A stretch of DNA of 10,178 nt from Candidatus Hermodarchaeota archaeon. GTDB taxonomy: Archaea > Asgardarchaeota > Lokiarchaeia > Sigyniarchaeales > SOKP01. Below the pieces are notes generated by a model. It saw only the letters and a list, made by a program, of their open reading frames with translations. It did no database searches and was not told the origin of the DNA. The position numbers were made by a program, and so were the translations under genes. Shown here one piece after another: positions 150 through 10,178 of the stretch (position 1 is the first letter of the stretch; each line of letters opens with the position of its first letter). The stretch is from positions 1-10,178 of the forward strand of contig JBHLLO010000087.1 of assembly GCA_048885535.1 (NCBI GenBank), given 5' to 3'.

Positions 150-1115
150 TTGAAAAAAAAAAAGAAGTCTTCTTCTGAAGAAACTAATTGTCAACATAAG
201 AATATTGAACAGAATGGTGGTTATTTAGTTTGTAAAGACTGCGGTTTAACTTTCGAAGATCGCATTGCTTTTGAGGAATCAACATCTCCAGTATCATATT
301 CAGACTCCCAAGTAGATTATGAACGAAAAATTAAGTTAAGTGATTCAAAAGCAACTCAAGACCCAAAAATTAAACAAAAGTATGATCAAATTAAAACTCT
401 GGACAAATGGTATAGAGATTATCAATCAAGCTTCTATGAACAAAAGAAAACTCTTGATCTTTTTAAGAGTTATGGGATAGGATTAAATATTAATAAAGTA
501 AAATACCAGGAAATTAGGGATAGGTATCTTAAATATAACAAATATCATAGACATACCTATCAAAATATGGTTATAATCTTTTTAGCAATTATTTGGATGG
601 AGATAAAAGATACAACAAGAGTAAGGATAGAAGAATTTATTAGAATTTCAAGAGAATTAGGCCATAAAATCAATAAAAAAATGCTTAATAATGCCATGCA
701 TAAAGTTATGCGAACAGAGTATATTTTTAATAAAGATCTCAAGGATAAATCGACTCTAGAGCGTGAGATTAAAGAAAGGATAAAGATTTTATTCCAAAAA
801 GACCTAAACAATATCAACTATGATAAGATAAAGAATCACTTTTCTAGTAAATCAGAATATGATAAAGTAAAAATTGAAATGCAATTATTAGCTAATAAAC
901 TGCTACAAAAAATAGAATATAGCCAAATACAAAATCTGAATTATAAAGCATTTACAGCAGGTTTAATTTATTATATAGGACAAACACTTGATAATAAGAA
1001 AATTTTTACTCAGAGTATTATTGAAGAAACAACTAAATTCTCGAGTACTACAATTAGAAAAAAATTTAATACATTAAAAGAAATATTAGGAGATCCTAAA
1101 ATAAATAGGTCATAA
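150..1115 (+). CDS. Divergent transcription initiation factor IIB (TFB/TFIIB)-like protein: N-terminal Zn ribbon plus cyclin-like core
   Basis: N-terminal C14-x-H16...GYLV-C28-KD-C31-GL matches the TFIIB Zn ribbon (canonical GExVCxxCGLV). The C-terminal AFTAGLIYY...TQSIIEETTKFSSTTIRKKFNTLKEIL aligns by eye to the second TFB cyclin repeat and BRE-binding HTH (AAALY...TQREVAEVARVTEVTVRNRYKELVE). The 321 aa length fits TFB. TTG start. Confidence 0.75.
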   Translation: MKKKKKSSSEETNCQHKNIEQNGGYLVCKDCGLTFEDRIAFEESTSPVSYSDSQVDYERKIKLSDSKATQDPKIKQKYDQIKTLDKWYRDYQSSFYEQKKTLDLFKSYGIGLNINKVKYQEIRDRYLKYNKYHRHTYQNMVIIFLAIIWMEIKDTTRVRIEEFIRISRELGHKINKKMLNNAMHKVMRTEYIFNKDLKDKSTLEREIKERIKILFQKDLNNINYDKIKNHFSSKSEYDKVKIEMQLLANKLLQKIEYSQIQNLNYKAFTAGLIYYIGQTLDNKKIFTQSIIEETTKFSSTTIRKKFNTLKEILGDPKINRS

Positions 1116-1206: not shown

Positions 1207-4053
1207 ATGTCAGAAATTTCAATCTCCTATTCAAATTACCATTCTCAAAATATAACAGAACTAATTAAAACATTTAATACTGATACTGAGAAAGGTTTAA
1301 AATCATCTGATTTAGAGACCCGATATTCTAAGTTTGGATATAATGAGTTACCCAGAATTAAAAAGTCGATTTGGAAGATATACCTAGCTCCTATTTTCAA
1401 TTTTTTAATTATTATTTTATTAGTTGCAGGAGTTATTGTATTCTTTTTAGGCTCACCTGGTTCAACAGTAATAACTTTTATAGTCGTGTTCCTAAATTCA
1501 ATTACAGTAATAATTCAACAATTTAGAGCACAAAAAGCTCTTGAATCTTTAAGAAAAATTGGCGCGTTAAAAGCTGAGGTTCTAAGAGATGGTGTTCAAT
1601 TTGAAATTCCAACTCGAGAATTAGCCCCAGGAGACATTATATTATTAGAACAAGGAGATAAAATCCCTGCTGATGGTAGAATAATTACTGATACTAATTT
1701 AACAATTGATGAAGCTCCTTTAACTGGTGAGAGCGAGCCAGTTGAAAAGCATAGTGAAGTACTACGAAATGGGGATTTACCAATACAAAAACAACTTAAT
1801 ATGGTATTCATGGGGACGTACATCAATACTGGAAGAGGAAAAGCATTAGTGACCAGAACAGGTATTAATACCGAGATTGGGAAAATCTCTAATCAACTGA
1901 ATGAAATGGGAAGTATAGAAGAAATCCCTCTGACTAAAAAATTAAACCGAATAGGATATATTTTAGGAAGTATTGTAATTCTGATCCTCATAACCTTAAT
2001 TATCTATAAATTCACGCTTTTAGGGTTACAGGGACTTTTATATGGAGATTATGTTAGTGAAGCATTAATTAGTTCAATCCTTAGGTCAATGAATATTATG
2101 CCTATAAATTTACCTATATTAACCACTTTGGTCTTAATCACAGGAGTCCTTAAAATGGCTGAAAGTGGAGTAATAATAAAAAATCTTTCAGCAATTGAAT
2201 CCTTAGGTAGGGTTTCTGTGATTTGCTCAGATAAAACTGGAACTATAACTAGAAATGAGATGGAAGTAGATAAATTTTTTATTAATAATAAAGAATATTG
2301 CGTGACAGGTTCAGGTTATGAAGCTGAGGGTGAAATATTAGATAATGGTACAGTTGTAAATTTAAAAGATAACAAAACATTTCAGAAATTCATTGAATCA
2401 AGTGTACTGAATAATAATGCGAGACTCATCTATGAAGATGTAAAAGTTAAACATAAAGATTTTAAAGAAATAGCAGTTAGAAGAGCGTTAGGATCACCTA
2501 CAGAAGCAGCTCTATTAACGTTAGCTGAAAAAGCAGGTTACGTTTTATATGATCTTACAAAAGCTTATGAAAAAGTAAGGGAATTTTCATTTAGTTCCGA
2601 TGTCAAACGAATGTCAACGATATGTAGGTTAAATGATGACAAAGAAATTAATTATGTTTTCTCCAAAGGGGCTCCAGAAAAGATATTAGAAATTAGTAAT
2701 AATATTGAGATTAATGGAACAGTAGAAGTATTATCCACAGACAAAAAAAATGAATTATTGGAAAAAATACAAGCTAAAGCAAAACAAGGATATAGGACAT
2801 TAGCGGTTGCTTATAAAACATTAAAAGATAAGATTGAAGAAACAAGAGAAACTGTTGAAAAAGAGTTGACTTTTCTGAGTTTCTTGTCAATAATGGATCC
2901 ACCACGCAACTACGTTAAGGAATCAGTAGAGGAGTGCGAATCTGGAGGTATTAAAATTAAAATGATCACGGGTGATCATCCAAATACAGCTCAAACAATA
3001 GCCTCTCAAATGCGAATTTTTAAACCTAACGATTTGGTTATTGAAGGTTCTGAAGTAGCTTCCATACCAGACAATGAATTTAGCCGAGTTTCAGTTTTTG
3101 CAAGAGTGTCTCCGTCAGATAAAGAAGTTATAGTTAAAAAATATCAAGATGCTAACAAGATTGTTGCTATGACTGGAGATGGGATTAATGACGCTTTAGC
3201 TCTTAAATTGGCAAATACTGGAATAGCTATGGGGATTACAGGTACTGATGTAGCGAAAGAAACTGCAGATCTAGTAATATCTGACGATGATTTCACTTCA
3301 ATAGTGAAGGGAGTGAAGATTGGGAGAGGCTTATTTGCTAAAATCAGAGTTATAGTCTACTTTTTTATATGTTTGAATATAATGGAAGCTCTGATCTTCT
3401 TTAGCTATGAATTTATACCACCAGGAATATTTCAATTATTTAGTTCCGAGTGGCAGCACATTTATATTTTTGGAATAGTTCATTCACTTCCCTCTTTAGC
3501 ATTAGTTGTAGATAAAGCTCCTAAAGATGTAATGCTTGAACCTCCAAGAGATAGTGAAGAAATATTAAACAGAAATATCTGGGGTTTATTATTAATTCAT
3601 GCTTTCCTTATGGGTTTAGGTTTAGTATTAGCATTACAATTAACTTTAGCTAACCTAATTCCATTAAATTCATATAATATTAATTTAAGTTATCCAGGAT
3701 CAATAGAGTTGGCCCAAAAAGCAAGGACAATGTTTATAACTACTCTTTTCATAGTAGAAACCAACTTTATTTGGAGTATTAGAAGACCAAATAAGTCACT
3801 TTTTAAAAGTATTAAGGAGGAATTTAGTTGGAAATTGTTTCTTATTTGCTTTTTCACTTTAGCATTGCACGTCTTACATATTATTTTTTCAGCGCCTATA
3901 AATTATTTTGTAAATGATGTCCTTAATTTCCAAATTAACTTCATGTTTCTTAGCCCATCAGATTGGTTAATTTGTATCTTATTATCTCTACCAGGCATTG
4001 TCGGAATTGAAGTAGTAAAGTTTGTGGCAAGAAGAAAAAACATTAGATTTTAA
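1207..4053 (+). CDS. P-type ATPase A, type II (SERCA/P2A-like) scaffold with non-canonical substrate site
   Basis: Cation_ATPase_N-like GL...R..KFGYNEL; A-domain PGD, IPAD and TGES (1723-1734); phosphorylation site CSDKTGT (D342, nt 2230); N-domain PTEAAL and KGAPE; hinge DPPR; MITGD; FARVSP..K; GDGIND; about 10 TM helices. Substrate not assignable. Confidence 0.95.
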   Translation: MSEISISYSNYHSQNITELIKTFNTDTEKGLKSSDLETRYSKFGYNELPRIKKSIWKIYLAPIFNFLIIILLVAGVIVFFLGSPGSTVITFIVVFLNSITVIIQQFRAQKALESLRKIGALKAEVLRDGVQFEIPTRELAPGDIILLEQGDKIPADGRIITDTNLTIDEAPLTGESEPVEKHSEVLRNGDLPIQKQLNMVFMGTYINTGRGKALVTRTGINTEIGKISNQLNEMGSIEEIPLTKKLNRIGYILGSIVILILITLIIYKFTLLGLQGLLYGDYVSEALISSILRSMNIMPINLPILTTLVLITGVLKMAESGVIIKNLSAIESLGRVSVICSDKTGTITRNEMEVDKFFINNKEYCVTGSGYEAEGEILDNGTVVNLKDNKTFQKFIESSVLNNNARLIYEDVKVKHKDFKEIAVRRALGSPTEAALLTLAEKAGYVLYDLTKAYEKVREFSFSSDVKRMSTICRLNDDKEINYVFSKGAPEKILEISNNIEINGTVEVLSTDKKNELLEKIQAKAKQGYRTLAVAYKTLKDKIEETRETVEKELTFLSFLSIMDPPRNYVKESVEECESGGIKIKMITGDHPNTAQTIASQMRIFKPNDLVIEGSEVASIPDNEFSRVSVFARVSPSDKEVIVKKYQDANKIVAMTGDGINDALALKLANTGIAMGITGTDVAKETADLVISDDDFTSIVKGVKIGRGLFAKIRVIVYFFICLNIMEALIFFSYEFIPPGIFQLFSSEWQHIYIFGIVHSLPSLALVVDKAPKDVMLEPPRDSEEILNRNIWGLLLIHAFLMGLGLVLALQLTLANLIPLNSYNINLSYPGSIELAQKARTMFITTLFIVETNFIWSIRRPNKSLFKSIKEEFSWKLFLICFFTLALHVLHIIFSAPINYFVNDVLNFQINFMFLSPSDWLICILLSLPGIVGIEVVKFVARRKNIRF

Positions 4054-4077: not shown

Positions 4078-4899
4078 ATGAATGAAATAAATGATATTAA
4101 AATCCCTACACGGTTTAGCCTATTAAAAAAATATGGTGGAATAATCTTTATTGCCGCCATTTTAATCTTGTTTATTATTTTAGCATTACTAAATATTAAT
4201 TTTGGTCAGTGGCTTGCCAATACTGTTATGTGGTTTTACAATGAATTCGGGGACATTGGAATATATCTTGGTATATTTTTTATAAGTATTTTTGGTAATT
4301 TCACAATTATTTTTCCAGTTCCTTATGTTGTTGCTTTGATTGTGATATCCGCAGTTATACCTGGTGTAAACCCAATCTTAATTGGTATTGTAGCCGGATT
4401 AGGAGCAAGTTTAGGAGAAGTTAGTGCATGGTTAATAGGACGTAGTTCAAAGGAATTCATTGGTGATTCTAAAAGTATGAACCGAATGAAAAAATATGTG
4501 GAGAAAGGATGGGCTCCAATATTGATCTTCATTTTTGCTGCAACTCCACTTCCAGATGATGCTTTTTTAATTGTTCTTGGACTTGCTCAATATAGTCTTG
4601 TAAAAACATTGATATACTGCTTTTTGGGGAAATTTATCTTGTGTTTTTTATGTAGTGCTCTACCCATTTGGTTAGCAGAGACTCCTTTAGGCATTTTTCT
4701 TTTTGGTTTATTCGGTATAGATATTGAAGCTGCTAGAACAGGAATCATTCCTCCTAGTTCCCCTTTAGAGGTTTTACAAACTTCATTAGTTTGGGCCGCT
4801 TCAATTATTATTTTATTCTTATTAGTATATATTGACTGGAATAAAGTAATTCAAAAAGTTAGAGAGAAAATAAAACCTAATTCAAAACTGAATTCTTAA
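4078..4899 (+). CDS. DedA/VTT (SNARE_assoc) family membrane protein, VMP1/YqaA-like; putative lipid scramblase
   Basis: Very hydrophobic. Re-entrant Pro motifs IFPVPY and AATPLPDD, GLGASLGE..AWLIGR, and C-terminal FLGK resemble the VMP1 motifs GTAIGE / IPNPLFD / LIGK. Starts 24 nt after the ATPase A stop. Confidence 0.85.
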   Translation: MNEINDIKIPTRFSLLKKYGGIIFIAAILILFIILALLNINFGQWLANTVMWFYNEFGDIGIYLGIFFISIFGNFTIIFPVPYVVALIVISAVIPGVNPILIGIVAGLGASLGEVSAWLIGRSSKEFIGDSKSMNRMKKYVEKGWAPILIFIFAATPLPDDAFLIVLGLAQYSLVKTLIYCFLGKFILCFLCSALPIWLAETPLGIFLFGLFGIDIEAARTGIIPPSSPLEVLQTSLVWAASIIILFLLVYIDWNKVIQKVREKIKPNSKLNS

Positions 4900-5048: not shown

Positions 5049-7943
5049 ATGACTGTATCGTTAGACCCATTTTATTCTATGGAGTTAAATCAAATATACT
5101 CCAAATTTCAAACTAATCCAACTAATGGATTATCGAATGAAGAAGCTCGAAGTAGATTAGAAAAATATGGCTTTAATGAAATCCCTAAAGTTTCAAAGGG
5201 CTTTATAAAAATATATTTGGCGCCATTATTTAATTGGTTAATAGTAATATACTTAATCGGAGCCCTAATCCTATTTTTAGCAGCAATTTTTGGTACTGAG
5301 GGTAATTTAATGTTTATAACAATAACTTTAGTAATAGTTGTTTTGAATTGTGCTGTTGCAATTATTCAACAATATCGAGCAACAAAAAAGTTAAAAGCTT
5401 TAAGAGAGATGACAGCGCCAACAACAACTGTTATTAGAAATGGAGAAAAAATTGATATTCCAACGAAAGAAGTAGTGGTGGGAGATCTCCTCGTATTAAC
5501 ACAAGGAGATAGGATTCCTGCAGATGGAAGAATAATAAGGTCTTCTAACTTGGAAGTGAATGAAGCTCCGTTAAGTGGAGAAAGTGAACCTGTAAAGAAA
5601 TTTCAAGAAGATAAGATATTACCAAAAGAAAATATTTCAATTGGAGAATGTTTAAACATGGTTTTTTATGGGACTTATATAACAACTGGTAATGGAACTG
5701 CCATCGCAGTAAAAATCGGAAAAGATACAGAAATAGGAAAAATCTCACAGGGCTTAGAGGAAGCTGGAACTAGTGATATTCCAATCAGAAAGAAGTTAAA
5801 TAATTTTGGAAAATGGTTGGGTTTAATCGTAATTGTTTCTTGGCTGATAATTTTATTAATTAAATGGATTAGTAGTAATTTTTTAGAATTACCAATTGTG
5901 GAAAGTCTTAACTCAGCATTAGATTTAATGCCAATAAACATTCCATTGCTAGTTACTATCGTTTTGATTACAGGAGTTCTAACGATGGCACATCATGGAG
6001 TGATAATAAGAAATCTTGCTTCTGTCGATAGTTTAGGTAGGGTGAGCGTTGTTTGTTCAGATAAAACCGGTACTTTAACAAAAAACCAACATTCAATACA
6101 ACACGTATGGACTAATGGCTCTAACTACAAAGTAACTGGAAGCGGATATAATCCAGATGGCGATATTATTTTAACTGATGATCCTAAAAACCCAGTTTAC
6201 ATAAAACATATTGAAGATCATCCTCAACTTAAATTATTATTAATATCAGGATTTTTAAATAATAATTCTGCCTTGGTTAAGAGTGAAATTGAAATCTCTG
6301 GGAAAATTATACCTAATTGGAATGTGATAGGCTCACCAACTGAAGGTGCTTTAATGGTACTCTTTCAAAAGGGTATGGGTGATTATATGCTCGATGATTT
6401 TGAGTATATCAAGGAATACCCATTTGATTCTAAATTGAAAAGGATGACAAAGATTTATAAGCGAGATAAAAAGTATTATTCCTTCACAAAGGGAGCGAGT
6501 GAAATTCTTATGCCACAATGTAAGAAAGTCTTATATAAAAATACAGAAGTTGAATTCACTGATGAGATCAAAGATAAAGTAAATAAAATTGCAGATCTAT
6601 ACGCACAACAAGGATATCGTATCCTAAGCATATGTTATAAGAAATTAGATGACTTGCCTTCTGAAGGAGACAAAAGCCGAGAATTATGTGAATCCGAAAT
6701 GATATATATAGGATTTGTAACAATTCTAGATCCTCCTAGGGAAGGCGTTAGAGAAAGCGTACTTCAATGTTATGAAGCGGGGGTTGATGTTGTAATGATA
6801 ACTGGGGACTCACCTGCTACTGCTAAAGCAATAGCAAAGCAAATAGCTATAATAAAGGAAGATGACGATTTAGTACTAGAGGGAAAGGATATCAAGGACA
6901 TTGATTCCTTCTATGACTTCAATCGGATTAAAGTTTTTGCACGAGTTTCTCCTGAGCACAAAGAGGATATAATAGAAAAATACCAAGATGCTAAGAAAGT
7001 AGTTGCTATGACCGGGGATGGTGTAAATGATGCTTTAGCCCTCAATATGGCAGATGCGGGTATAGCTATGGGAATACAGGGAACTGATGTTGCTAAGGAA
7101 GCAAGTGACATGGTTATTAGTGATGATTCCTTTAACTCTATTGTAAAAGGAATCGAACAAGGAAGAGGGATATTCTCTAGAATTCGTGCAGTGGTATTTT
7201 TCTATATTTGTATAAATGTATTTGAAGGAATTGTTCAATTTATTTTAGCCATAATTTTAGGATTACCCTACTTTTTAGGAACTAATCCCGTTTCTCCCTA
7301 TTTTTACTTCCAATGGATTTTCTTGTCAATAACTCTTCACGTATTTCCGGGCTTAATTTTGACTTTTGACAAAACTCCTAAAGATGTCATGAAACAAAAA
7401 CCACGTGATGGGGAAGAGATTCTTTCAAAGAATATACTTTTTCTTTTATTTATTTTTGGGGTATTATTGGCAGTGTGTATGATTATCACTTATTTTACGG
7501 TAATCACTGGATGTTATCCTGTATTTTTAGAAAACTATGAATTTGGTGCTTTTAACGATGCTTATCTCTATTCAGGAATGGTGACTCCGGGAGATGTCAC
7601 TCTTTCTCAAGCAAAATCTCTTACAATGCTTATGGTAACGCTATTCTTTTGTGAGTCATTTCTCGTGTATCAAATTAGAAGACCAAATAAATCGTTAATT
7701 AGAAGTATTAAAGAAGATAGTACTAAGTTTATGTACCTCTTAATTGGTTTATTATTTGGTCTTTTTATTGCTTTGATGTATATACCTGGAGTTCAAGTCA
7801 CGCTAGCATCTTGGGGAATAAATTTTATGTTTATGTACTTAACCGGATTAGATTGGTTAGTATGCTTTTTGATCTCATTGATTTGCATTGGTGGACTTGA
7901 ATTCTTTAAATATTTGTTTAGAAAGAGAAAAGTTTTCTTTTAA
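5049..7943 (+). CDS. P-type ATPase B, paralog of ATPase A, type II scaffold with the same non-canonical substrate site
   Basis: GLSNEEARSRLEKYGFNEI; VGD and IPAD; SGES (5574-5585); CSDKTGTLT (D338, nt 6060); PTEGAL; FDSKLKRM; KGASE; DPPR; MITGD; FARVSPEHK; GDGVND; about 10 TM helices. Confidence 0.95.
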   Translation: MTVSLDPFYSMELNQIYSKFQTNPTNGLSNEEARSRLEKYGFNEIPKVSKGFIKIYLAPLFNWLIVIYLIGALILFLAAIFGTEGNLMFITITLVIVVLNCAVAIIQQYRATKKLKALREMTAPTTTVIRNGEKIDIPTKEVVVGDLLVLTQGDRIPADGRIIRSSNLEVNEAPLSGESEPVKKFQEDKILPKENISIGECLNMVFYGTYITTGNGTAIAVKIGKDTEIGKISQGLEEAGTSDIPIRKKLNNFGKWLGLIVIVSWLIILLIKWISSNFLELPIVESLNSALDLMPINIPLLVTIVLITGVLTMAHHGVIIRNLASVDSLGRVSVVCSDKTGTLTKNQHSIQHVWTNGSNYKVTGSGYNPDGDIILTDDPKNPVYIKHIEDHPQLKLLLISGFLNNNSALVKSEIEISGKIIPNWNVIGSPTEGALMVLFQKGMGDYMLDDFEYIKEYPFDSKLKRMTKIYKRDKKYYSFTKGASEILMPQCKKVLYKNTEVEFTDEIKDKVNKIADLYAQQGYRILSICYKKLDDLPSEGDKSRELCESEMIYIGFVTILDPPREGVRESVLQCYEAGVDVVMITGDSPATAKAIAKQIAIIKEDDDLVLEGKDIKDIDSFYDFNRIKVFARVSPEHKEDIIEKYQDAKKVVAMTGDGVNDALALNMADAGIAMGIQGTDVAKEASDMVISDDSFNSIVKGIEQGRGIFSRIRAVVFFYICINVFEGIVQFILAIILGLPYFLGTNPVSPYFYFQWIFLSITLHVFPGLILTFDKTPKDVMKQKPRDGEEILSKNILFLLFIFGVLLAVCMIITYFTVITGCYPVFLENYEFGAFNDAYLYSGMVTPGDVTLSQAKSLTMLMVTLFFCESFLVYQIRRPNKSLIRSIKEDSTKFMYLLIGLLFGLFIALMYIPGVQVTLASWGINFMFMYLTGLDWLVCFLISLICIGGLEFFKYLFRKRKVFF

Positions 7944-7996: not shown

Positions 7997-8527
7997 ATGT
8001 TCGAAAGTGAGAGATTAAAATTAGCTCCTCTTAAGAGGGAATATATTGAAAGCTTCCTTAAATGGTTAAATGATCCTGAAATTACTCAATATTTAACCGG
8101 ATATCGCCCCCTCACTCAAGATATGGAGGAAGATTGGTTCGATAATCTCAAGAAGCGAGAAAATGCTATAATCTTCTCAATTTTATTAAAAGATAATCAA
8201 AAGTTAATAGGTAACTGTGGCATCGAAGATATACACTGGGTAAATAGATCTGCAACATGTGGTCTTTTTATTGGTGATAAGGAAAACCAAGGAAAAGGCT
8301 ATGGACCTGAAGCATTACGTTTATTACTAGATTATGGCTTTAGTACCTTGAATCTCAACCGGATAGATTTAAAGGTATATGAATTTAATACACGCGCTAT
8401 TAAATGCTATAAGAAAGTTGGATTTATTGAAGAAGGGAGGAAACGGCAAGCAACATTTAAAAATGGCAAATATTATGATGATATTGTTATGAGTATTTTA
8501 CATGAAGAATGGAAAGGAAAATCTTAA
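7997..8527 (+). CDS. GNAT family N-acetyltransferase, RimJ/RimL (Acetyltransf_3) type
   Basis: ERLKLAPL N-terminus, LIGNCGI strand, acetyl-CoA loop QGKGYG, LNLNRI.L.V...N.RAI..Y.K.GF..EG..R and GKYYD..VMSIL C-terminus. Substrate unknown. Confidence 0.93.
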   Translation: MFESERLKLAPLKREYIESFLKWLNDPEITQYLTGYRPLTQDMEEDWFDNLKKRENAIIFSILLKDNQKLIGNCGIEDIHWVNRSATCGLFIGDKENQGKGYGPEALRLLLDYGFSTLNLNRIDLKVYEFNTRAIKCYKKVGFIEEGRKRQATFKNGKYYDDIVMSILHEEWKGKS

Positions 8528-8592: not shown

Positions 8593-8967
8593 TTGAAATT
8601 AAATAAAATAACAGGAATTCTTTGTTTAATAAGTATTATTCCTATGATAATATCTTTCATATTTATACCGTGGTTAGAACTTGCTGTAGGTATTTTAGTT
8701 ATCATCATTGGAGTTGTTCATATATTATTAATGATTATTGCCGTTAATAGTTCTTTTAAGAAAAAAGTAGGACAGAGCCTTCGTATAGGTAGATTTACAG
8801 CTACAACTCAATGTATAGTTGGTGGGACTATTCCAATATTAATGTTATTAGGTGTACTCTTTTATTCTCCGGGTATAATAATCTATTTTCCAATCTTATT
8901 ACCCTTATATATCATAAGTGGAATTATTGATATTATTGCCGCAATAATTTATAAAAAATCAACTTAA
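8593..8967 (+). CDS. Hypothetical small membrane protein, about 4 TM helices
   Basis: 124-aa ORF filling the gap between genes on the same strand. Four hydrophobic segments, a basic loop (FKKK...R..R) and basic termini; SD-like GAGGT upstream and T-tract downstream. No family recognised. Confidence 0.75.
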   Translation: MKLNKITGILCLISIIPMIISFIFIPWLELAVGILVIIIGVVHILLMIIAVNSSFKKKVGQSLRIGRFTATTQCIVGGTIPILMLLGVLFYSPGIIIYFPILLPLYIISGIIDIIAAIIYKKST

Positions 8968-9072: not shown

Positions 9073-10178
9073 TTGAGTAGAACAACTGTTTCCATAGTAA
9101 AGTATGAAAAACCACTAGATTCAGTCAGTAAAGTTATAGAAATGATAGATGGATTTAAAGACATACCTATTGATGGAAAAATATTCATTAAACCTAACTT
9201 AGTATATTGGAATAGGCATTGTGATTTTCCAAAATGGGGGATGCTTACTACTTCAAGAGTAGTGGAAGATGTTGTGAAGTTGTTAAATGAATATGGTGTA
9301 AAAGATATAATAATTGGAGAAGGTATAATTACCGATGATCCCGACGATAGGGAAACACCTAAAGATGCTTTTGAAAAGCTGGGATATAATCTCCTTAAGC
9401 AAAGATATGGCGTTAAACTATATGATACTTTTGATCGTCCATTTGAAAAGATAGAACTCCGAGAAGGAGTCTCTGTTAAGATGAATTCTGATATGCTTCA
9501 TTCAGATTTCTTAATTGATATTCCCGTCCTAAAAACTCATGCTCAGTGTGTTGTAAGCTTGGGAATTAAGAATTTAAAAGGGCTGATCAATATAGCTTCA
9601 CGTAAAAAATTTCATGGTGCTGATCCTAAGTTTAACCTGCATTATAACGTAGCTCAGTTGGCAAATAAAATCCCTCCAAACCTTACTATTATTGATGGAA
9701 TTTATACACTTGAAAGAGGACCAACTTTTGATGGTAAAGCTCATCGAAGTAATGTTTTGCTAGCTTCAACTGATATCCTCTCAGCTGATATAGTTGGAGC
9801 AAAATTATTAGGCATTAACCCTCAAGATGTTCCTCATTTAGTTCAAGCAGCTAAAGATAGAAATCGAACCATAGATTTATCTGATATTGAAATAGAGGGG
9901 GAACCTATAGAAAAAATGGCAAAACATCACGATTGGGAATTTATTTATGAAAATAATGATACTTTGCCTCTTTCTTATGCGAGAGCGGGAATAGGTGGTA
10001 TTAGTTATCCAAAATATGACGAAACTATGTGTACATTTTGTAGTTTTTATAATGGAGTCATTTTAGTTGCGATTAAGGAAGCTTGGAAAGGAGAAGATTT
10101 CGATAATGTGGAAATTCTAACAGGAAAAATAGTACCACCTACGCCTGGAATGAATAAAACAATTTTACTTGGACAATG
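9073..10178 (+). CDS. DUF362 domain protein with Cys-containing C-terminal extension (3' truncated; absent from the ORF track)
   Basis: Manual translation from TTG 9073 (last in-frame stop at 9043-9045) is open to the window end (368 codons): MSRTTVSIVKYEKPLDSV...IFIKPNLV...IIIGEG...IPVLKTHAQCVVSLGIKNLKG...IIDGIYTLERGPTFDG...D..SAD..GAKLLG...MCTFCS...ILLGQ. IKPN, GEG, PxLKTH, KNLxG, IDG and GP..G are DUF362 motifs. Confidence 0.9.
   Translation, partial: MSRTTVSIVKYEKPLDSVSKVIEMIDGFKDIPIDGKIFIKPNLVYWNRHCDFPKWGMLTTSRVVEDVVKLLNEYGVKDIIIGEGIITDDPDDRETPKDAFEKLGYNLLKQRYGVKLYDTFDRPFEKIELREGVSVKMNSDMLHSDFLIDIPVLKTHAQCVVSLGIKNLKGLINIASRKKFHGADPKFNLHYNVAQLANKIPPNLTIIDGIYTLERGPTFDGKAHRSNVLLASTDILSADIVGAKLLGINPQDVPHLVQAAKDRNRTIDLSDIEIEGEPIEKMAKHHDWEFIYENNDTLPLSYARAGIGGISYPKYDETMCTFCSFYNGVILVAIKEAWKGEDFDNVEILTGKIVPPTPGMNKTILLGQ

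Follow-up and report, generated by a model that had tools for sequence, protein, structure and literature searches.

The window analysed here, a 10.2-kb (10,178 nucleotides) AT-rich stretch of DNA (G+C content 0.25-0.35) from a Candidatus Hermodarchaeota archaeon, is contig 87 of a 3.09-Mb genome of 91.6% completeness, and carries every one of its open reading frames (ORFs) on the plus strand. The closest relatives of its proteins carry the labels Promethearchaeota, Lokiarchaeota, Hodarchaeota, Thorarchaeota and Hermodarchaeota, which places the source among the Asgard archaea. Two of its genes encode P-type ATPases, designated pump A and pump B, which share 41-44% identity and in which a His stands on membrane helix M6 at the place of the Asp (D800) of the Ca2+ pump SERCA. 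To our knowledge, this M6 Asp is held to be indispensable in the Ca2+, Na+/K+, H+/K+ and H+ pumps of the P2 and P3 classes. The two pump genes and their catalytic and membrane sites are located as follows, in coordinates of the window:

1207..4053, plus strand: pump A, P-type ATPase of 948 amino acids (intact ORF and Pfam)
2101..2115, plus strand: helix M4 of A, P299-I300-N301-L302-P303 (LMCA1 alignment)
2230..2244, plus strand: DKTGT phosphorylation motif of A, with D342 (sequence)
3367..3387, plus strand: helix M5 of A, ICLNIME, residues 721-727, with N724 at 3376-3378 and E727 at 3385-3387 (SERCA2 alignment)
3454..3504, plus strand: helix M6 of A, QHIYIFGIVHSLPSLAL, residues 750-766, with H759 at 3481-3483 (SERCA2 and LMCA1 alignments)
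3757..3759, plus strand: E851 of A, the M8 Glu equivalent to E908 (SERCA2 alignment)
5049..7943, plus strand: pump B, P-type ATPase of 964 amino acids (intact ORF and Pfam)
5931..5945, plus strand: helix M4 of B, P295-I296-N297-I298-P299 (sequence)
7206..7226, plus strand: helix M5 of B, ICINVFE, residues 720-726, with N723 and E726 (sequence)
7311..7361, plus strand: helix M6 of B, QWIFLSITLHVFPGLIL, residues 755-771, with H764 at 7338-7340 (sequence)
7653..7655, plus strand: E869 of B, the M8 Glu (sequence)

Both A and B are P-type ATPases that are catalytically intact and have the fold and domain order of the P2A class. Pump A contains the Pfam domains Cation_ATPase_N, E1-E2_ATPase, Cation_ATPase, Hydrolase and Cation_ATPase_C, and its catalytic motifs read TGES, DKTGT, KGA, DPPR, MITGD and GDGIND; those of B read SGES (in the actuator domain), DKTGT, DPPR, MITGD and GDGVND. 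The AlphaFold2 model of A, based on 119 aligned sequences (mean predicted local distance difference test score 90.8; predicted template-modelling score 0.87), has actuator, phosphorylation and nucleotide-binding domains and a ten-helix membrane domain, of which helix M4 is interrupted at residues 298-301. Foldseek matched this model to SERCA, SPCA1 and LMCA1 with a probability of 1.00 and template-modelling scores of 0.76-0.84 over the P2A class, the top matches being SPCA1 and SERCA2b in E2P-type states (0.79-0.84). A phmmer search with A against solved structures gave P2A matches with E values from 3e-124 to 1e-103, headed by LMCA1 (3e-124) and including SPCA1 (1e-112).

Among the NCBIfam models, the generic P-type model TIGR01494 was passed by both pumps (A 279 and B 283 bits against a cut-off of 62.3), and all models for particular classes were failed. 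The best match, the PMR1-type model TIGR01522, scored 446 bits for A and 465 for B against 798.3, and the SERCA-type model TIGR01116 444 and 419 against 703.4, so that the P2A equivalog cut-offs are about twice the scores of these pumps. The P3A model TIGR01647 (A 338, B 331 bits; cut-off 615.5), the P4 model TIGR01652 (131 and 99; cut-off 431) and the P5 (ATP13A2-type) model TIGR01657 (241 and 235; cut-off 618) were failed likewise, as were the P1B models (172-227 bits against cut-offs of 313-346; TIGR01512, 172 against 313.5).

The register of the membrane sites was set by phmmer alignment to the solved structures of SERCA2 (5mpm, 7bt2) and LMCA1; the residue numbers used for the aligned sites (D800 and the like) are those which we take to apply to SERCA1a. 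M5 and M6 of A align with SERCA2 without gaps (ficlnimeal on lissnvgevv; QHIYIFGIVHSLPSLAL on qllwvnlvtdglpatal), M6 pairs equally gap-free with qllfinlvndslpaial of LMCA1, and fivet on M8 pairs with vtiem of SERCA2. H759 of A occupies the column of the M6 Asp, F755 that of the M6 Asn and V758 that of the Thr; N724 and E727 match the M5 N-x-x-E motif, and the conserved Pro three residues past the His aligns to the Pro of D-G-L-P. In pump B the corresponding M6 residues are H764, S760 (Asn place) and L763 (Thr place). M4 of A pairs with P-E-A-L-S of LMCA1, which places Ile on the E309 equivalent and Asn on the G310 equivalent.

Compared with the P2A pumps of known structure, LMCA1 (6zhf/9euq), SPCA1 (8iwp/7yag) and SERCA1/2, the two pumps have the domain order, the fold, the M5 N-x-x-E motif and the M8 Glu in common, whereas the Glu-Gly of P2A M4 is Ile-Asn in pumps of this kind, and the Asn and Asp of P2A M6 are a Phe/Tyr or small residue and the His. 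The P2A signature P-E-G-L, whose Glu is both gate and ligand, has become P-I-N-L-P in A and P-I-N-I-P in B, and N-x-x-T-D, with its bridging Asp, has become F-G-I-V-H and S-I-T-L-H, respectively; the site-I signature, M5 N-x-x-E with the M8 Glu, is present in both. Ca2+ site II is abolished through the changes of the M4 Glu to Ile, of the M6 Asn to Phe/Tyr or a small residue, and of the M6 Asp to His. Four conserved polar side chains would line the predicted site-I pocket, namely the M4 Asn in the unwound segment, the M5 Glu, the M6 His and the M8 Glu, and in most relatives the M5 Asn would join them. That the His points toward this pocket is argued from its register and its invariance.

The original prediction for this DNA had already located the M5, M6 and M8 sites, and every residue number and nucleotide coordinate it gave for A and B was reproduced here. 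Its gapless placement of the His on the M6 Asp of SERCA agrees with the phmmer alignments to both SERCA2 and LMCA1, and the retention of the M5 N-x-x-E and M8 Glu that it reported holds for both pumps (N724, E727 and E851; N723, E726 and E869). It had also proposed that site II was lost, on the basis of M6; the replacement of the M4 Glu by Ile, which it did not mention, adds to this. Its argument that neither protein is a standard Ca2+ or H+ pump is borne out by scores far under all NCBIfam equivalog cut-offs.

Conservation of the site was scored in one profile alignment of 501 proteins of at least 600 amino acids, a sample biased to close relatives of A. At the D800 place, 192 rows have His, 290 Asp, eight Glu, two Ser and one Gln, with gaps in the remaining eight. 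Of the His rows, 190 of the 190 covered have a hydrophobic residue in the E309 column (Ile 140, Phe 36, Leu 5, Val 5, Trp 4; two gaps), and the residue after it is Asn in 188 of 190 (Met and Ser once each). All 192 have the M5 Glu, 189 of the 190 covered have the M8 Glu and 169 of 192 the M5 Asn, and in 175 of 192 an aromatic Phe or Tyr has replaced the M6 Asn. The Asp rows keep the M4 Glu in 287 of 290 cases, and mixed His/Asp site patterns were absent from the 501 aligned proteins. Since all His rows derive from one event, these counts measure fixation, and not repeated co-evolution. Outside the clade formed by the His rows (hereafter the His clade), a carboxylate is found in the M6 Asp column or directly beside it in 300 of the 301 rows that are not gapped there (290 Asp, 8 Glu, 2 Ser-Glu). 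The lone Gln row, P0153, lies inside the clade; it has Q-F in place of the His, Ser for the M4 Asn and Gln for the M8 Glu, and may be a decayed or re-specialised clade member. The signature of the clade, P-hydrophobic-N/S/T-x-P/V on M4 together with the M5 Glu, M6 His and M8 Glu, is complete in A and B. Further changes set the clade apart from canonical rows: a conserved Gln on M1 is Pro, GDGxNDA-P is GDGxNDA-L, and Gln has taken the place of a conserved Glu where M2 meets the cytoplasm. In all 12 loci of one Asgard family, Ser or Thr replaces the M4 Asn.

Among 56 related loci the His is kept in all 54 covered orthologues of A and all 45 covered orthologues of B. Conservation and register of the His among homologues had been named in the original prediction as the points on which its interpretation depended, and the clade homologues retain the His in register with the Asp. 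The part of that interpretation which concerned the loss of site II and a non-standard pump thus stood, while the proposal of a cluster including the Cys of the ICxN motif (C722 in A) did not: this position is variable within the clade (Cys 32%, Ala 26%, Tyr 12%, Ser 9%), and the Cys was rejected as a ligand for this reason. The fourth conserved polar residue is instead the M4 Asn.

The same division emerged from a database search covering 1.84 billion proteins, evaluated on its best 150 representatives (50% clusters). Within these, all 30 rows above 550 bits have the hydrophobic-polar motif on M4, and the full-length rows above 550 bits have the M6 His with the exception of P0153. The first protein of the PEGLP/N..TD type appeared at 536 bits, and two further His-type proteins at 502 and 468 bits, amid canonical rows. 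In a FastTree phylogeny of 135 full-length rows, all 31 His rows and one His-less derivative split off with a support of 100 and a branch length of 0.42. IQ-TREE (LG+G4, short search), run on 27 His and 30 Asp rows with three Asgard P3A pumps as outgroup, recovered the His rows as a clade (Shimodaira-Hasegawa approximate likelihood-ratio support 100), separate from the P2A pumps; monophyly of the Asp rows, on which the place of the His clade among them depends, had a support of only 46. On these trees the His pumps are one old clade. A and B sit in different subclades of it in both trees, and are thus old paralogues.

By the names attached to the proteins, the clade seems Asgard-specific with one named exception, a 'Nanopelagicaceae' protein from a metagenome-assembled genome with 68% identity to A. 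The 56 loci with A, taken from one-genome-per-species contigs, are labelled Promethearchaeota/Promethearchaeia, in some cases Hodarchaeota or Thorarchaeota, or uncultured archaeon. The farthest subclades, with P-F-N-F-P and P-W-N-F-P on M4, are labelled Promethearchaeota or Helarchaeota, and the most distant ones include one member from the cultured Promethearchaeum syntrophicum and one from Candidatus Harpocratesius; for 2 of 10 clusters the names of the cluster members were Helarchaeota only. All named non-Asgard matches apart from that exception are of the canonical type (Tissierellia, Clostridia, Anaerolineae, Nanoarchaeota, Bathyarchaeia, Hydrothermarchaeaceae). The ESM Atlas returned generic P-type clusters, the nearest of which is 62% Archaea with Promethearchaeota as the commonest label. 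Out of 201 Asgard genomes, 186 match A at E <= 1e-100; about 131, in 12 of 27 family-level groups, hold a clade member when a best match of E <= 1e-170 is taken as the His-type range, which among the 150 best representatives was reached by His-type proteins only, a few genomes at 1e-150 to 1e-170 being ambiguous. Two or more copies per genome are frequent, and stop codons were absent from the roughly 150 matches listed.

The family is apparently undescribed: full-text literature searches, with subscription journals outside their coverage, yielded no description of the clade. In the portions available, a census of Asgard transporters mentions orthologues for a putative Ca2+-ATPase and for Cu pumps only (PMC7997004), a study of the calcium system of the endoplasmic reticulum derives SERCA from bacteria (PMC7016017), and a paper on P2A and P5A evolution mentions SERCA pumps as not reported in Archaea (PMC7065118).

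The remaining genes of the window surround and separate the two pump genes:

150-1115, plus strand: TFIIB-type zinc ribbon protein of 321 amino acids (Pfam, weak match)
4078..4899, plus strand: DedA/VTT-domain membrane protein between the pumps (Pfam VTT_dom)
7997-8527, plus strand: RimJ/RimL-like GNAT acetyltransferase (ORF and Pfam)
8593-8967, plus strand: small membrane protein (ORF)
9073-10176, plus strand: DUF362 protein, which runs past the end of the window (ORF and Pfam)

The order zinc ribbon protein, A, (DedA), B, GNAT is found over the 56 related loci. B follows A in all 48 loci with enough sequence, the other eight stopping at a contig edge, and the zinc ribbon protein immediately precedes A wherever the sequence reaches far enough (50 of 50 loci). 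The zinc ribbon of this protein was detected under the Pfam cut-off (E value 2.4e-4), cyclin repeats were not detected in its 321 residues, and a sequence search of the PDB with it gave no match; possibly it is a TFB-like factor that has diverged and is linked to the two pumps. A GNAT gene comes after B in 39 of the 56 loci, and a DUF362 protein is often present further downstream; a functional tie of either to the pumps was not found. DedA lies between A and B in 13 of the 56 loci, is missing from all 40 loci analysed from other families, and was rejected as a partner on these counts. The 40 loci, non-syntenic and from 11 other family-level groups, were scanned over 348 of 349 ORFs of at least 80 amino acids within 5 kb of the pump. 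Outside the family of the window the pumps are mostly single, and all pumps of these loci have the His and a polar residue after the hydrophobic one on M4. No neighbour common to several Asgard families was present among the scanned ORFs, gene order being conserved at the family level only. A promoter and terminator scan gave fewer sites than shuffled sequences did, with bacterial models that do not apply to archaea. As to expression, no RNA data set was listed as containing the 6.7-kb stretch.

The pumps probably carry some small ion other than Ca2+. The reading we prefer, tentatively and with a probability of about 35%, is that they are single-site exporters of a divalent transition metal, in which the His acts both as ligand and as built-in counter-ion. 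One cation per cycle would be bound from the cytoplasm at the Asn/Glu/His/Glu pocket and then exported. Two carboxylates, an imidazole and an amide would be ill suited to coordinate Ca2+, Mg2+, Na+ or K+, and the same ligand set would be usual for divalent transition metals of the class of Mn2+, Fe2+, Zn2+, Co2+ and Ni2+. Once the ion has left in the E2P state, the His would become protonated and pair with both Glu residues. A, with Phe at the M6 Asn place, and B, with Ser or Thr there, would differ in selectivity or affinity.

This proton uptake and pairing parallels the role proposed for the M6 His of the P1B-4 pump sCoaT. According to the part of the sCoaT study available (PMC8880997; restated in PMC10654040), H657 of the M6 motif HEGxT is essential, and was proposed to be a built-in counter-ion and possibly a ligand. 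In both groups the His lies on M6, beside a Glu in the case of P1B-4 (sCoaT, CzcP/CtpD type), so that the likeness is one of helix. Class and topology differ, P1B-4 pumps having eight helices; their motifs are SPC on M4 and HEGxT on M6 (PMC8880997), compared with PINLP and H-S-L-P in A.

Among the scanned neighbours of the pumps, metal homeostasis is the sole theme that recurs. A ZnuA/ABC-3 uptake operon was seen at a distance of 2.5-4.6 kb in seven of the 12 loci that belong to one Asgard family, in one of the seven together with a DtxR-type repressor; in another family a ZIP transporter gene lies at 0.9 kb, in a third a DtxR-type gene at 5 kb, and ArsR, CbiQ and a Na+/Ca2+ exchanger occur as single cases. 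We regard this neighbourhood as a weak, anecdotal lead and not as evidence of weight.

Several observations weigh against a transition-metal exporter. Two genera of a single family, with a common gene order, account for all seven ZnuA loci, the metal-neighbour counts stand without a background rate from control regions, and nothing metal-related was seen in the remaining 28 of the 40 loci or in any of the 56 syntenic ones. Exporters of the cation diffusion facilitator (CDF) type are present in 185 of the 201 Asgard genomes, so nearly universal that these pumps would not be filling a gap. His- or Cys-rich accessory stretches are lacking: in none of the 192 members does a stretch of 15 residues contain four or more His. 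In the subclade with the Promethearchaeum syntrophicum protein, Leu stands where the others have the M5 Asn. The change of the M2 Glu to Gln leaves one negative charge fewer at the cytoplasmic side of M2, which may touch the entry path, and would suit a monovalent ion or H+ at least equally well. Finally, we infer the identity of the ion from ligand chemistry alone.

The same pocket could instead serve a proton pump or an H+/K+ exchanger, in which the buried His between two Glu residues would load H+ from the cytoplasm in E1 and free it outside in E2P, taking over the role of the M6 Asp of the P3A pumps; this we consider unlikely. Imidazole titrates near neutral pH, and AHA2 and Pma1 are the familiar H+-ATPases of the P3A class. 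The E309 place is hydrophobic in both classes, with P-V-A-L-P in Asgard P3A copies and P-I-N-L-P in His pumps, and the negative charge lost from the cytoplasmic end of M2 fits a proton pump as well. P3A pumps, on the other hand, have Asn-Asp on M6 and an Arg on each of M5 and M8, whereas the His clade has the His, the P2A-type N-x-x-E and a Glu at these places; A stays at 338 bits against the P3A cut-off of 615.5, and four or five conserved polar residues exceed what a proton carrier needs.

The distribution of the two pump types bears on the same alternative. Of the three genomes in the window's family that lack a His pump, two (G094, G099) have a P3A pump, which speaks for a proton pump. P3A pumps over the curated cut-off are present in 30 of the 201 genomes, mostly beside His pumps (for example in G077, G104, G109, G171, G011, G052 and G041), which argues that they are not alternatives to each other, and neither with P3A proton pumps nor with CDF exporters was a complementary distribution seen in the 201 genomes. 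Three genomes of the window's genus (G077, G104 and G171) have three or four P3A genes, two of them in tandem, while in the genome of the window none was found at the threshold used. That genome also encodes an ordinary Ca2+-type pump (PEGL/N..TD) and a Cu pump; the latter, a P1B ATPase with a CPC motif (locus L001, contig 67), has long C-terminal metal-binding repeats of the Cys-x-Met type, and its ORF leaves the locus.

That A and B still move a hard cation (Ca2+, Mg2+, Na+ or K+) through one modified site, with site I kept instead of site II, is likewise doubtful. The nearest solved or curated relatives are Ca2+/Mn2+ pumps (LMCA1, SPCA1 and the PMR1-type model), three of the five site-I ligands are kept, and in the single locus with a Na+/Ca2+ exchanger gene this lies 1.3 kb from a tandem pump pair. 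PMCA, SPCA and LMCA1 work with one site; all single-site P2 pumps that we know of keep site II, the one erased here. Imidazole is a poor ligand for hard cations, and the near-universal carboxylate at or next to the M6 Asp place outside the His clade speaks against a hard cation as well. With a canonical Ca2+-type pump in the same genome, A and B are not the sole Ca2+ pump of the cell.

Less probable still is a cargo other than a metal ion, such as ammonium, a polyamine or some other organic cation or, on the model of the P4 flippases, a lipid head group. The bulky Phe/Tyr found at the M6 Asn place of most clade members, the DedA/VTT gene between A and B and the frequent GNAT gene after B could be taken in its favour, as could the M4 Ile, which stands where P4 flippases presumably have their gate Ile. 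A and B, however, have TGES or SGES in the actuator domain, where the flippase motif is DGET, together with Cation_ATPase_N and Cation_ATPase_C; the trees group the clade with P2A-like pumps, the compact site-I ligands are kept, and DedA is confined to a minority of the loci. A flippase or P5 identity was rejected on motifs and model scores (P4, 131 against 431 bits; P5, 241 against 618 bits). That the proteins are sensors, regulators or decaying paralogues which transport nothing would agree with the loss of canonical ion ligands, but is very improbable given the intact catalytic motifs of both genes, site residues invariant over some 190 sequences from several old subclades, and a spread over about 131 of the 201 Asgard genomes with reading frames free of stop codons among the matches listed.

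We see about even odds that the Asgard-specific, imidazole-centred Asn/Glu/His/Glu site represents either the first transition-metal pump on a P2 scaffold or the first P-type proton pump in which a His bears the proton. The subfamily built on it appears to consist of several paralogous subclades, one of them with a member in the cultured Promethearchaeum syntrophicum. If true, the exchange of the M6 Asp for His along with the erasure of site II, fixed in a large conserved family, would show a new construction principle for P-type transport sites, and the label 'Ca2+-transporting ATPase' on hundreds of Asgard proteins would probably be wrong. As roughly two in three of the Asgard genomes sampled carry the family, the question bears on the ion and metal economy of the closest archaeal relatives of eukaryotes. 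A homologue in a cultured strain, and membership in a protein class that expresses and assays well, make it directly testable.

Two further gene arrangements were noted around pumps of other families. In five loci of family f5 (L076, L085, L090, L092 and L093), a ZnuABC-like operon, a KaiC-like ATPase and a protein of about 265 amino acids without assigned function are followed by the pump and by a large flavoprotein/2Fe-2S oxidoreductase with its DAO partner; a DtxR-type repressor is part of this block in L076 only. Beside or near the pumps of L061, L073 and L078 (families f7 and f2), Pfam matches of the E3 UFM1-ligase-like, DDRGK, PCI and VPS28-like types were recorded, eukaryote-signature proteins that are typical of Asgard genomes.

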